Notes: a model not told the origin generated them from the letters alone. Counted from the stretch's first letter, positions 31,573 to 35,753 are shown. The stretch is 64,000 nucleotides of DNA from Deltaproteobacteria bacterium (GCA_040218735.1 JAVJQW010000012.1:46880-110879), one strand, 5' to 3'. A program made the numbers and translations.

Positions 31573-33003
31573 GTGGGAGCCCCCTCGAAGACCACCGCCG
31601 CGAACCTCGCGACGCTCGCGCTCTGGTTCACCGCCTTCTCGCGGCCCCTCGCCTGGTGGGGCCGACGACTGGCCGGCGAGCCCTTTCAACTGCTCCTCGC
31701 GGTGATCGCCGCCGGGCTCCTCGGCCGGCTCGCGTACCGACACCGCGCCGCGATCGTCGCTCGCCTCGCCGCGCCCCCTACGCTCGCGCCGCTCCCGCTC
31801 GCGATGGTACTCGTCGCCGCGCCCGCGTTCCTCGCCGCGGAGCGGTGGCTCGACGTCAGCATCCTCTCCGCGTCGCTCTTCTCGCTCGGCACCTACGGGC
31901 TCTTCGGCCTGTACGCGTCCGAGACCACCTGGCGCCGCGGCGCCCCCGTCGCGCTGCTGCTGATGGGCCTGCTCCCCGTCGGCGCGCACCTCGACGCGTA
32001 CGGCGGCTTCGTCCTCCGCGCGCTGAGCGCCGACGTCGCCTCCTCCCTCCTCGACGCGCTCGGCGTCCAACACGTGTCGAGCGAGACGATCCTCGTCCTC
32101 GAAAACGGCGTCGCCCACGTCGACATCCCGTGCAGCGGCATCCGCGGCCTGTGGACGGGCGCCCTCTTCTTCCTCGTCGCGACGATCCTCGCGCGCCGTG
32201 AGCTCGGCGTTCGCTTCGTCCTCGTCGGCGCACTTCACGCCGCCGCGATCGTCGCCGCCAACATCATCCGCGTCACCGCCATCACCCTGATCGCTGTCGA
32301 AGCCGACCTCCCCCGCGTCGCCTCGATCGTGCACGAACCACTCGGGCTCCTCGGCTTCATGCTCGCCGGCGCGATGAGCTGGGCGCTCCTCCGCGGTGCC
32401 CCCGCTCGGAACGCGCCACGTGCGCTCCCCCGCACCGCGCGCGTGCGCTGGGTCGTCGCCCTCACCGCGCTCCTCACGCTCGTCCTCCACAGCCCGCGAC
32501 CGAAGGCCGCCACCGACGTCGCCCACGCGGCGATCGTCGCGCCCGCCGCGCTGAGGCCACACGCGCTCGCGCTCACCGCGGAGGAGATCGATCTGTTCTC
32601 CCGCTTCGGCGCTTCGGGCGCCGCCAAGTACGTCGGCGTCCTCGACGAACATCCGATCGAGCTGGTCCTCGTCGACAGCACCGCGTGGCGCGCGCACCAC
32701 CCGCCCGAGCTGTGCCTCGCCGCGAGCGGTCACCGCATCCAGCGCATCGAAGACGTCGTCGTCGACGACCAACGCCGTTTCCGGCTCGCCAAGATCGAAG
32801 GGGATCGCGACGCGATCTTCTGGTTCCAGTCCGCGCACCGCACCACCGGACGCGCCCTCGACCGCATCTTCTCCGGGGTCTTCGATCGCGGCCGACGCTG
32901 GGTGCTCGTCAGCACTCTCGTCGACGACGACGCCGACCCCCGCGCCGTCTTCGAAGTCATCGCCAACGACCTGGCCGCCCAGATCGAAAGGAATTCGCCA
33001 TGA
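31573..33003 (+). CDS. exosortase (EpsH family) with fused C-terminal EpsI-like domain
   Basis: Eight hydrophobic helices. The signature VDIPCSGIRGLW provides the conserved Cys and Arg, and AANIIRV the conserved Asn and Arg. The C-terminal ~190 aa carry HPPELCLAASGH, which resembles EpsI. Confidence 0.8.
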   Translation: MGAPSKTTAANLATLALWFTAFSRPLAWWGRRLAGEPFQLLLAVIAAGLLGRLAYRHRAAIVARLAAPPTLAPLPLAMVLVAAPAFLAAERWLDVSILSASLFSLGTYGLFGLYASETTWRRGAPVALLLMGLLPVGAHLDAYGGFVLRALSADVASSLLDALGVQHVSSETILVLENGVAHVDIPCSGIRGLWTGALFFLVATILARRELGVRFVLVGALHAAAIVAANIIRVTAITLIAVEADLPRVASIVHEPLGLLGFMLAGAMSWALLRGAPARNAPRALPRTARVRWVVALTALLTLVLHSPRPKAATDVAHAAIVAPAALRPHALALTAEEIDLFSRFGASGAAKYVGVLDEHPIELVLVDSTAWRAHHPPELCLAASGHRIQRIEDVVVDDQRRFRLAKIEGDRDAIFWFQSAHRTTGRALDRIFSGVFDRGRRWVLVSTLVDDDADPRAVFEVIANDLAAQIERNSP

Positions 33004-35753
33004 GTCTGTCCGTCGTCCGCGGGCTTTCGCGCCCGCTCTACCACTTCGTCTTCTGGACCTGGAACGTGCTGCTCGGGACCGTCGTGTACTTCGGCCTCGT
33101 CCCCGCGCTGTTCACCGACTCGTTCCTCCGCGACGTCGCCGACTGGCCGGGGAGCTTCCTCGCCTTCCTCGCGCTGCTCGTGCTCGCGCCCATCACCGCG
33201 CTGACCATCGGCATCTTCCGACTCCGCAAGGACGCCACGAAGCTCATTCGCCTGTTCTACGGCGTCGAAGCCCCGCTGTTCGTCCTCGCGCTGATCCGCA
33301 TCTTCGCGTTCCGGCAACTCACCCCCGCGACCGGGTGGCTGTTCGGCGCGCTCGTCCTCGGCGCGATCGCCCACGGCGTGCTGCTGCTCGTCGGCCCGGA
33401 GCGCCGCATCACGCGCGACGCGCTCCTCGTCGGCCAGACCGCGGGCGTGCTCATCGCCGCCTACGTCGCCGTGGTGCTGATGTTCTTCGTCGCCCCGGCG
33501 ACCGTCGAGATCTGCCGCTCGCTCTTCGAGGGCGGGTTCATCCGCGACCTCGTGTTCGCGCGCTCGTTCCTCGCTCTCGTCGGCGCGATGCTCTTCATGT
33601 TCTCGGCGACGCTCTTCGTCGCCCTCCCGTTCGCGTTCATCCTCAGCCACATCGCCGGACTCAAGGAGCTCGTGCGCGCCGCCATCCTCGACGGCCGGGG
33701 CGTCCGCGCGCTGGTGACCGTCGCCCTCACGACCGTCCTCGGTGGCGGCATCACGACCTACCTCGTCGACGAGGGCGCCAAGACCCCCGAGACCCTCACG
33801 CGGCTCGCCGAGCTGCCCACCTCCGATGCCGAGCGCCGCGACCGCCTCGACGACGCTGCCACGATCCGCGACCGCCTCGTCGACGCGCACCTGTGGCGCT
33901 ACCGCTACCTCGCTGCCAACGGCGAGGTCCGCGAGATCCGTCGCATGTACGAAGACACGCTCCCGTACGGCGCACGGCACCTCGCCCCCGACGTCCAGGC
34001 CGCCTTCGAAGACGTCGTCTCGCCCTTCCTCTACCCCGGCACCCGCGACGACGTCCGCGACGCCGAGCTTCGCTACGCCGAGTTCTTCGACGAGTCGATC
34101 CAACGCGGCGCCCGCGCCCAGCTCAAGGACGCGGTGAACGCGACCTTCGAGCGGGTCGACGTCGCCGCGAATCTCCTCGACGTCGACGAACGCGCCGTCC
34201 ACCTCGTCGAGCAAACCATCACCGTGAACCCCGACGACTTCGCCGCGGACGTGGAGATCTTCGAAGTCTACGAGAACCGCACCAAGCAGGACGTCGAGAT
34301 CCTCTACACCTTCACGCTCCCCGACACCGCCGTCATCACCGGCCTCTGGCTCAACGAGCTGGCGCCCGACAAGGACAACGCCTTTGCCTTCCGCGTCTCC
34401 CCGCGCGGCGCCGCGCAGCGCGTCTACGAAGCCGAAGTGCGACGCCGCGTCGACCCCGCGCTCCTCGAACAGATCGGCCCTCGCCAGTATCGGCTCCGCG
34501 TCTTCCCGATCCCCGCGAGCCGCGACGAGCCTCGCCGCATGCACCTGTGGCTGACCTACCGCACGCTCCCCACCAACGACGGCTGGCCGCTCCCGCAGCT
34601 CCTCGAAGCGCGCAACGTCTTCTGGGACGACGACACCAAGCGCACCGTCGCGGGCGAACAGACGGACGGCGAGTACGCCTGGAGCAGCACGACCATCGAG
34701 ATGGACGTGCCCGAACCACGTCGTCGCGTGTTCGCGGTGGGCGACGCGCAGATCGTCGCGACGCCCCTCGACGGCGACGTCGGCCTCCCGCGCGGCGGTC
34801 GAAACTACGCGGTCGTCCTCGATCGCTCCTACTCCATGCACGAGGTCGAGGACGAGCTCGACGACGCCTTCGCTTGGCTGCGGGAGAACGTCTACCCGCG
34901 TTCGAACGTCGACGTGTACCTCACCGCGGCGCCCACCCGCGGCGCTCCGGCGCAGCGCGTGGACGACGCGACGAGCTACGACGTCACGTCCGAGATCTTC
35001 TACGGCGGCCAGTCGACGACCTCGATGATGCAGCAGGCGATCGAGCTCGCGGAGGACGCCGACATCGCGTGCCCGTTCGGCAAGACCGGCATCGACTGCT
35101 ACGACGCCGTCCTCTTCTTCACCGACCGCGGCCGGATGGAGATGGAGAGCGGCGGCGCCCTCGCCTACGACGGCGACGCACCGCTCTGGATGATCCACCT
35201 CGGCGGCACCGTCGCCGTCGGCTACGACGACGCCGTCACCGAGGCGATGCAGAAGAGCGCCGGCGGCGTCGCCACGACCCCGGCCGAGGCCTTCGCACAC
35301 TTCGCGCTCGCCGAGCAGACGAGCGAAGCCTTCATCGGCTTCGGGGGCGGCTACCGGTGGACCCTCGAGAACGGCACCGGCGGTGCGACCGACCCGATCG
35401 CCGCGCGCCAGTTCGTCCGGGCGGCGATCCAGACGCAGGATGTCTCAGATCGTGACGTGCTCCAGCGTATCCACAGCGTGGCGACGCGCGCGAAGATCGT
35501 CACGCCGTACTCGTCGATGATCGTCTTGGTCATGGACCGGCAGCACCAGGCGCTCGACATCGCCGAGAATCAGGCCGATGCGTTCGATCGGCGCACGAAC
35601 ACGGACGGCACCGCCCTCCCGCAACCGGGGGACGCCCTCGGGCTCACCGGAACGCCGGAGCCCGAAGTGTGGGCGCTCCTCCTGATGGGCCTGATGATGC
35701 TGTTCGTGATGCACCGGCGGTCCCTCAACTTCGGAGTACGCGATCCGAATTAG
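33000..35753 (+). CDS. membrane protein: N-terminal 7-TM domain, VIT domain, vWA domain and C-terminal PEP-CTERM-like sorting signal (putative dedicated exosortase substrate)
   Basis: ATG overlaps the exosortase stop (ATGA). About 7 hydrophobic helices in the first 330 aa. The VIT-like core is YTFTLPDTAVITGLWL. MIDAS motif YAVVLDRSYSM. The C-terminus GTPEPEVWALLLMGLMMLFVMHRRS has a PEP motif, a TM helix and a basic cluster. Confidence 0.7.
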   Translation: MSLSVVRGLSRPLYHFVFWTWNVLLGTVVYFGLVPALFTDSFLRDVADWPGSFLAFLALLVLAPITALTIGIFRLRKDATKLIRLFYGVEAPLFVLALIRIFAFRQLTPATGWLFGALVLGAIAHGVLLLVGPERRITRDALLVGQTAGVLIAAYVAVVLMFFVAPATVEICRSLFEGGFIRDLVFARSFLALVGAMLFMFSATLFVALPFAFILSHIAGLKELVRAAILDGRGVRALVTVALTTVLGGGITTYLVDEGAKTPETLTRLAELPTSDAERRDRLDDAATIRDRLVDAHLWRYRYLAANGEVREIRRMYEDTLPYGARHLAPDVQAAFEDVVSPFLYPGTRDDVRDAELRYAEFFDESIQRGARAQLKDAVNATFERVDVAANLLDVDERAVHLVEQTITVNPDDFAADVEIFEVYENRTKQDVEILYTFTLPDTAVITGLWLNELAPDKDNAFAFRVSPRGAAQRVYEAEVRRRVDPALLEQIGPRQYRLRVFPIPASRDEPRRMHLWLTYRTLPTNDGWPLPQLLEARNVFWDDDTKRTVAGEQTDGEYAWSSTTIEMDVPEPRRRVFAVGDAQIVATPLDGDVGLPRGGRNYAVVLDRSYSMHEVEDELDDAFAWLRENVYPRSNVDVYLTAAPTRGAPAQRVDDATSYDVTSEIFYGGQSTTSMMQQAIELAEDADIACPFGKTGIDCYDAVLFFTDRGRMEMESGGALAYDGDAPLWMIHLGGTVAVGYDDAVTEAMQKSAGGVATTPAEAFAHFALAEQTSEAFIGFGGGYRWTLENGTGGATDPIAARQFVRAAIQTQDVSDRDVLQRIHSVATRAKIVTPYSSMIVLVMDRQHQALDIAENQADAFDRRTNTDGTALPQPGDALGLTGTPEPEVWALLLMGLMMLFVMHRRSLNFGVRDPN

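Follow-up and report, generated by a model that had tools for sequence, protein, structure and literature searches.

In a 64,000-nt stretch of the metagenome-assembled genome (MAG) of a Deltaproteobacteria bacterium (GCA_040218735.1, JAVJQW010000012.1:46880-110879; hereafter the window), we analyzed two adjoining plus-strand genes between positions 31,573 and 35,753, which encode an exosortase and a large membrane protein ending in a PEP-CTERM tail. A preliminary description of this DNA had proposed an exosortase-EpsI fusion coupled to one dedicated target protein, in a combination believed to be undescribed. Our analysis indicates that the locus is, with high confidence, an XrtO/TIGR02921 cassette, in which exosortase O (XrtO) stands beside its presumably cognate PEP-CTERM substrate.

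Two overlapping genes and their products

31573..33003, plus strand: xrtO (exosortase O), 476 amino acids (aa), GTG start, TGA stop at 33001-33003
33000..35753, plus strand: gene of the TIGR02921-family PEP-CTERM integral membrane protein (hereafter the target), 917 aa, ATG start

The coordinates of both open reading frames (ORFs) and their overlap proved to be as first described: the two genes share the four nucleotides ATGA, which hold the ATG of the target gene (33000-33002) and the TGA of xrtO (33001-33003). A Shine-Dalgarno-like AAAGGA lies 8-13 nt 5' of this ATG, and xrtO and the target gene are a two-gene, translationally coupled operon. The frame of the 917-aa ORF, which differs from that of xrtO, extends open beyond the ATG chosen as its start, and the same two products were obtained from three independent gene callers, those of IMG (Joint Genome Institute, JGI), NCBI and Logan. 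A promoter and terminator scan returned nothing informative within the operon. We also recovered every motif quoted in the preliminary description, namely VDIPCSGIRGLW, AANIIRV, HPPELCLAASGH, YTFTLPDTAVITGLWL, VVLDRSYSM and the tail GTPEPEVWALLLMGLMMLFVMHRRS, after which the target C-terminus runs on for nine more residues.

31621..32391, plus strand: exosortase (EpsH) polytopic membrane core of XrtO, aa 17-273, the span of PF09721
32131-32133, plus strand: codon of the putative catalytic Cys187, with Asn230/Arg233 and His254 in the same core
32560..33000, plus strand: EpsI-like C-terminal domain of XrtO, approximately aa 330-476, with a conserved HHPPELC motif

XrtO scored 335.9 bits against the NCBIfam model for exosortase O (TIGR04489, cut-off 250), with aa 19-456 aligned to positions 2-450 of the 451-position model, and remained far under the cut-offs of all other exosortase models, of which XrtT came next (XrtT 76/250, XrtN 48.7/200, XrtA 40.1/208). 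Pfam Exosortase_EpsH (PF09721) matched aa 17-273 with 81.5 bits, confirming the original exosortase assignment. In an alignment of 15 XrtO sequences, C187 (IPCSG), N230/R233 (NIIR) and H254-EPL-G258 (HxPxG) were invariant, and XrtO carries the full exosortase signature of Cys in P-C-S-G, Asn-x-x-Arg and His-x-x-x-Gly. Cys, Arg and His are the proposed catalytic triad of exosortases (PMC1569441, which defines the motifs; also 10.1101/2023.06.07.544157).

Hydropathy places a basic loop and an extra hydrophobic helix (approximately aa 289-305) after the core, followed by a C-terminal domain of about 150 aa in which H376, P378, C381, W417 and W443 are invariant among the 15 sequences. In the window copy, this domain matched Pfam DUF3485/EpsI with 17.4 bits at aa 375-472, under the gathering threshold of 26.1, and the NCBIfam scan gave no XrtO match to TIGR02914 (EpsI) at E<=1. 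Eight of the 15 XrtO homologues matched DUF3485/EpsI at E<=0.01 (best 8.6e-5), which makes an EpsI-like reading of the C-terminus plausible. The exosortase part of the proposed fusion stands, and its second part is better termed EpsI-like; a C-terminal region homologous to EpsI has been described in EpsH proteins (PMC1569441). By helix counting, the EpsI-like domain should be periplasmic. A PDB sequence-profile search with XrtO gave no match.

33000..33776, plus strand: N-terminal domain with seven transmembrane (TM) helices (7-TM domain), aa 1-259, predicted N-in, motif Y87-x-x-E90-x-P92 ... R100 ... R105
33777..34184, plus strand: extracytoplasmic all-helical linker domain, aa 260-395; AlphaFold2 helices at approximately 260-380, predicted local distance difference test score (pLDDT) about 90
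34185..34769, plus strand: VIT-type beta-sandwich region, aa 396-590; Pfam VIT, AlphaFold2 strands 400-589, Foldseek
34797..35579, plus strand: vWA-fold domain, approximately aa 600-860, with the metal-ion-dependent adhesion site (MIDAS) residues D608-x-S610-x-S612 and D709
35652..35750, plus strand: PEP-CTERM sorting signal, P886-E887-P888, TM helix at approximately 890-907, H908-R909-R910 and 7 extra residues

The target matched TIGR02921 ('PEP_integral') over nearly its whole length, with 611.9 bits against a cut-off of 200 (aa 14-907, model positions 9-920 of 922). More than 1000 homologues were found, and most of those with a source name are cyanobacterial; the window copy is 35-40% identical to the homologues from the search. 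An AlphaFold2 model built with 40 homologues (pLDDT 87.4, predicted TM-score 0.85) orders the protein into a seven-helix membrane bundle, an all-helical domain, a beta-sandwich, an alternating beta/alpha domain, a disordered spacer and a terminal helix. Hydropathy and the positive-inside rule predict that the block of approximately 630 aa after the seventh TM helix is outside, and that the final helix re-enters the membrane with HRR inside.

As had been predicted from the outset, seven TM helices lie within aa 16-259 by both hydropathy, which sets them at aa 16-256, and the AlphaFold2 model, and the alternation of K/R-rich loops gives an N-in orientation by the positive-inside rule. The 7-TM domain had been presented as unrecognized; it is in fact covered by the full-length TIGR02921 model, and Haft et al. 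had already pointed to a multi-TM PEP-CTERM family in 2006 (PMC1569441). It contains an intramembrane motif, LFYGVEAPLF...R...F.R(E/D)L, in which Y87, E90, P92, R100 and R105 are invariant. Exhaustive phmmer searching of 1.84 billion representatives with aa 1-395 of the target returned 372 proteins, nearly all of 880-1000 aa, suggesting that the 7-TM domain is confined to this architecture; the shorter proteins look like contig-end fragments. No solved fold matched the 7-TM domain. The invariance of Glu90, Arg100 and Arg105 inside the membrane suggests that this domain may have a function beyond anchoring.

In the extracytoplasmic part, R302, Y359, F362, F363 and D364 of the linker domain are invariant among the target homologues. 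Pfam VIT (PF08487) matched aa 404-507 with 42.1 bits (gathering threshold 26.5), in agreement with the VIT-like block first noticed there, and a PDB sequence-profile search with the target gave a marginal match only, to the VIT domain of PARP4. The vWA domain with a MIDAS motif that had been read from the sequence was not recovered by Pfam VWA, VWA_2 or VWA_3 at E<=1. However, the best Foldseek match of the target model in the PDB was inter-alpha-inhibitor heavy chain 1 (ITIH1; 6fpy, E 8.3e-15, approximately 600 columns), and none of the 40 target homologues deviates at D608, S610, S612 or D709; together these support the vWA/MIDAS assignment even though the Pfam models are silent. Among the homologues, the canonical MIDAS Thr showed no clear conservation.

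Conservation of the pair and relation to named systems

To place the locus among its relatives, loci were gathered from 12 exact-protein look-ups, giving 13 independent TIGR02921 loci including the window. At 10 of the 13, xrtO lies directly 5' of the TIGR02921 gene. Seen from the XrtO side, the TIGR02921 protein is encoded immediately downstream on the same strand in all ten XrtO loci, with both proteins above their cut-offs. The ten paired loci are the window (which equals L002-L004), L001 (66% identity), L007 (60% identity), L008 (an Anaerolineaceae MAG), L009 (a Polyangia MAG), L010, L011, L012, L013 and L014. With Polyangia, Anaerolineae and loci whose flanks resemble those of cyanobacteria among them, they span at least three phylum-level lineages. 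Apart from those of the closest relatives, their flanks are unrelated; L007 repeats the flanks of the window, with GT9 and TANGO2 genes upstream and an Hpt gene and an ORF of about 232 aa downstream. The 4-nt overlap between xrtO and the target gene recurs in five pairs (the window, L007, L009, L011 and L012). Conserved adjacency, a criterion for dedicated systems (PMC3237569), was thus found at ten loci with unrelated flanks, and this fixed arrangement supports a dedicated enzyme/substrate cassette, as the preliminary description had envisaged.

An absence of XrtO from cyanobacteria was first suggested by 15 word-search relatives, none of which bore a cyanobacterial name. This idea was rejected, as an XrtO gene adjoins the target gene in L012 and L014, two loci with flanking genes of cyanobacterial appearance.

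The target C-terminus shows the tripartite architecture of a Pro-Glu-Pro motif, a TM helix and a basic cluster. P886-E887-P888 is invariant, and the helix and basic cluster are present in all 40 target homologues. The ten xrtO-linked targets all have tails of the form PEP-x-x-W that contain at least one Glu, and the TIGR02921 genes without an adjacent xrtO have PEPHQY (L006), PEPHQW (L015) and PEPGTV (L016). A strict XrtO-specific 'PEPxxW' motif was considered and dropped, since L015 has PEPHQW but no adjacent xrtO. At least one Glu follows PEP in the xrtO-linked copies and none does in L006, L015 and L016. This pattern fits, in a suggestive way only, with a tail flavor tuned to XrtO and with retargeting of the unlinked copies to another exosortase.

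The combination is not undescribed, as had been supposed: both proteins exceed the cut-offs of curated models (TIGR04489 and TIGR02921), and the exact proteins bear corresponding names in GenBank (MEQ8273647.1, 'MAG: exosortase O [Deltaproteobacteria bacterium]'; MEQ8273648.1, 'MAG: TIGR02921 family PEP-CTERM protein') and, for the target, in IMG ('putative PEP-CTERM system integral membrane protein'). Rather than a new system, the locus is a standard copy of the catalogued XrtO/TIGR02921 cassette. It is identical to that cassette in family scores, gene order, coupling (nine other loci) and GenBank names; it differs from its homologues in coming from a high-GC Deltaproteobacteria MAG with Polyangia-type relatives, and in a tail with 7 extra residues past the basic cluster.

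Systems built on similar lines are already known. 'Vault-protein' homologues of the VIT/vWA type that end in LPXTG, GlyGly-CTERM or PEP-CTERM tails occur beside their sorting enzymes, and the concept of dedicated systems, with one enzyme and one target per genome, is set out in the same paper (PMC3237569). The XrtN system (TIGR04476/TIGR04477) and MSEP-CTERM (TIGR04286) are likewise exosortase-linked, with VIT-domain targets of approximately 800-920 aa. Their models match our pair weakly, in the VIT region and, in homologues, in the C-terminal region, but with scores far under the cut-offs (48.7/200, 33.1/250 and 16.9/150 for TIGR04476, TIGR04477 and TIGR04286, respectively). No sequence similarity to these systems was detected in the 7-TM domain, and the exosortase subfamily and tail flavor differ. 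The marine proteobacterial sortase (TIGR03784) and its VIT-vWA LPXTG target (TIGR03788) follow the same logic of one enzyme and an adjoining target (PMC3237569), and the VIT regions of the two targets are detectably similar. By contrast, the sortase fold is unrelated to the polytopic exosortase, and the TIGR03788 target has an LPXTG tail and a signal peptide in place of the 7-TM domain; TIGR03788 scored 14.8 bits (cut-off 551) on our target, in the VIT region only, and the tail here is of the PEP-CTERM type.

XrtO shares its exosortase core and catalytic motifs with the XrtA/EpsH proteins of exopolysaccharide (EPS) loci (TIGR03109), in which EpsI (TIGR02914) is separate or fused; its C-terminal domain is plausibly EpsI-like. 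XrtA, however, serves many targets, whereas XrtO keeps a single fixed neighbor, and the XrtA model falls well short on XrtO (40.1 versus 208 bits). No gene for polysaccharide export or polymerase was found within 30 kb on either side of the pair, and a tie to an EPS locus was rejected on the absence of EPS genes from these surroundings.

Outside bacteria, ITIH1 shares the VIT, the MIDAS vWA and a C-terminal region with the extracytoplasmic part of the target. It differs in being eukaryotic and secreted, in its 11% identity, in having no membrane domain and in its unrelated processing enzymes. The heavy chains of this family lose a C-terminal propeptide and carry a glycosaminoglycan in ester linkage at the C-terminus thus formed. 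A parallel in C-terminal processing may be drawn, as an analogy only.

Proposed processing of the target by exosortase O

In the model that we favor, XrtO and its substrate would be made together, and insertion of the substrate would bring its PEP motif to the outer face of the inner membrane. The active-site Cys of XrtO, placed near the same face, would attack at or beside this motif, and the C-terminal helix and basic cluster would be removed via an acyl-enzyme intermediate, as in the chemistry of sortases and of exosortases and archaeosortases, on which this model is patterned. The new C-terminus might then be released or be passed to an acceptor, for instance a glycan or a lipid, possibly with the assistance of the periplasmic EpsI-like domain. 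The VIT-vWA module would be displayed to the periplasm, where metal-dependent binding of a ligand would take place at its MIDAS. Since the substrate keeps its N-terminal 7-TM domain, the product would remain in the inner membrane. The mechanistic model of exosortases is taken from earlier work (PMC1569441, 10.1101/2023.06.07.544157), and release versus transfer of the new C-terminus is unsettled for the whole family (10.1101/2023.06.07.544157).

Several points weigh against reading the locus in this way. No exosortase was found within 8 kb of the TIGR02921 gene in three of the 13 loci (L006, L015 and L016), and adjacency with xrtO is therefore not obligatory. The target scored 14.0 bits (E 0.068) against the generic PEP-CTERM model TIGR02595 and did not reach its cut-off of 16. 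The textbook PEP-CTERM tail of the preliminary description accordingly holds for its invariant PEP motif, helix and basic cluster but not for the generic score, a near-miss made irrelevant by the family-specific TIGR02921 model. The co-variation of tail and linkage is based on approximately two independent lineages, and the count of PEP-CTERM proteins and exosortases covers a 64-kb window of an 11.5-Mb genome. Our literature search found no paper, whether experimental or descriptive, that deals with XrtO or TIGR02921, and we infer the pairing of the two from their adjacency. Cleavage, its site, transfer and ligand binding are all put forward by analogy. Finally, retention in the membrane after cleavage leaves the purpose of 'sorting' unclear.

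As to the three unlinked loci themselves, the TIGR02921 genes lie at 8001-10772 (L006, Oxynema aestuarii), 8001-10796 (L015) and 8001-10811 (L016), with cyanobacterial-type flanks. Two tandem ORFs of approximately 141 aa without a Pfam match lie just 5' of the gene in L006 and L015.

Alternatively, XrtO could be a general exosortase that serves many PEP-CTERM proteins elsewhere in the 11.5-Mb genome, with the TIGR02921 protein as one client that happens to adjoin it. Exosortases usually have many targets per genome, and the pair also occurs in L012 and L014, with their cyanobacterial-looking flanks; cyanobacteria typically encode dozens of PEP-CTERM proteins (PMC1569441). We nevertheless regard this as improbable, because the target adjoins xrtO at 10 of 10 XrtO loci across at least three phylum-level lineages, whereas general exosortases have no such fixed neighbor, and multi-target genomes typically do not place targets beside the sorting enzyme, as seen with rhombosortase (PMC3237569). 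The shortfall against the XrtA model (40 bits versus 208) points in the same direction, as does the window, which holds no EPS locus and in which only one PEP-CTERM-like tail was found among all ORF C-termini.

In a further proposal, the target would be more than an adhesin held passively in the membrane. Its 7-TM domain could be an active membrane module, and XrtO with its EpsI-like domain could attach the C-terminus, once freed, covalently to a glycan or lipid acceptor by transpeptidation or esterification. We consider this unlikely; if true, the target would be tethered at both ends, would connect a polymer of the envelope with the inner membrane and would be a bacterial counterpart of the attachment of inter-alpha-inhibitor heavy chains to glycosaminoglycan.

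Least probable of all, and hardly to be expected, is that the tail stays uncleaved and its helix docks the target stably and permanently on XrtO. The exosortase fold would then be a scaffold, and the two proteins would make up a single machine in which, for example, a periplasmic module for adhesion or ligand binding is coupled to a membrane domain. In favor of this, loss of an eighth helix would free nothing from a protein with seven others, translational coupling favors a 1:1 stoichiometry and the invariant charged intramembrane residues of the 7-TM domain suggest an activity of its own. Against it, the Cys, Arg and His of the XrtO triad never vary, which is unexpected if XrtO is a scaffold devoid of catalysis; the PEP motif does not vary either, and the TIGR02921 protein persists in three lineages with no XrtO beside it.

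As a dedicated cassette, XrtO/TIGR02921 is a system of one enzyme and one neighbor, present in more than 370 sequence clusters, and would provide a clean test case. Because its substrate cannot leave the membrane, which is unusual among PEP-CTERM proteins, it is a good case for asking whether the C-terminus is released or transferred after cleavage, and it is also suited to asking what the EpsI-like domain contributes. What remains of most interest is the 7-TM domain and the fate of an exosortase substrate that is unable to leave the membrane.

Neighboring genes

Upstream of the pair lie genes for two major facilitator superfamily transporters, an Mpo1-like protein, a GT9 glycosyltransferase and TANGO2, together with a gene for a Y1 transposase resembling REP-associated tyrosine transposases (RAYT). 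This RAYT-like gene (30634-31320) scored 42 bits against NF047646 (REP-associated tyrosine transposase; cut-off 80). Between it and xrtO, at 31342-31459, a GC-rich unit of approximately 60 nt occurs in two tandem copies that are 93% identical, with no other occurrence within the 64-kb window. In JGI's assembly for this organism (L002, 8171-8458), there are about four copies and the spacer is longer by 127 bp, indicating that the copy number of the unit varies between assemblies.

Downstream, an Hpt protein (35774-36112, plus strand; Pfam Hpt 61.7 bits) starts approximately 20 nt past the target stop and is followed by a 232-aa ORF (36144-36842, plus strand) with only a faint P-loop-like match. 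Both also follow the pair in the 60% identical locus L007, and not in distant XrtO loci; they may be a clade-specific extension of the operon. The opposite strand then carries a cluster (36815-45750, minus strand) encoding ferrochelatase, MenC-like, UbiA/MenA-like, MenD-like (thiamine pyrophosphate enzyme) and isochorismate synthase-like proteins and a UbiE/MenG methyltransferase, which goes on with HMG-CoA reductase, DAHP synthase and polyprenyl synthase and looks like a menaquinone/isoprenoid block. The remaining genes of the window encode housekeeping and regulatory proteins.

Approximately 8 kb 5' of xrtO, a stand-alone 435-aa VWA-domain protein (23058-24365, minus strand; Pfam VWA, VWA_2 and VWA_3) adjoins a HisKA/HATPase sensor kinase (21585-23456, minus strand) and a LuxR-type response regulator (20091-21110, minus strand); this cluster has no evident link to the xrtO cassette. 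A 1022-aa ORF at 50198-53266 (minus strand), with a third-position GC of 0.97, has PPC (pre-peptidase C-terminal) as its sole domain and adjoins a CotH-kinase family protein (53431-55179, minus strand). An ORF at 4369-5736 (minus strand) matched a Stig1-like cysteine-rich domain with 43 bits, a family known mostly from plants.

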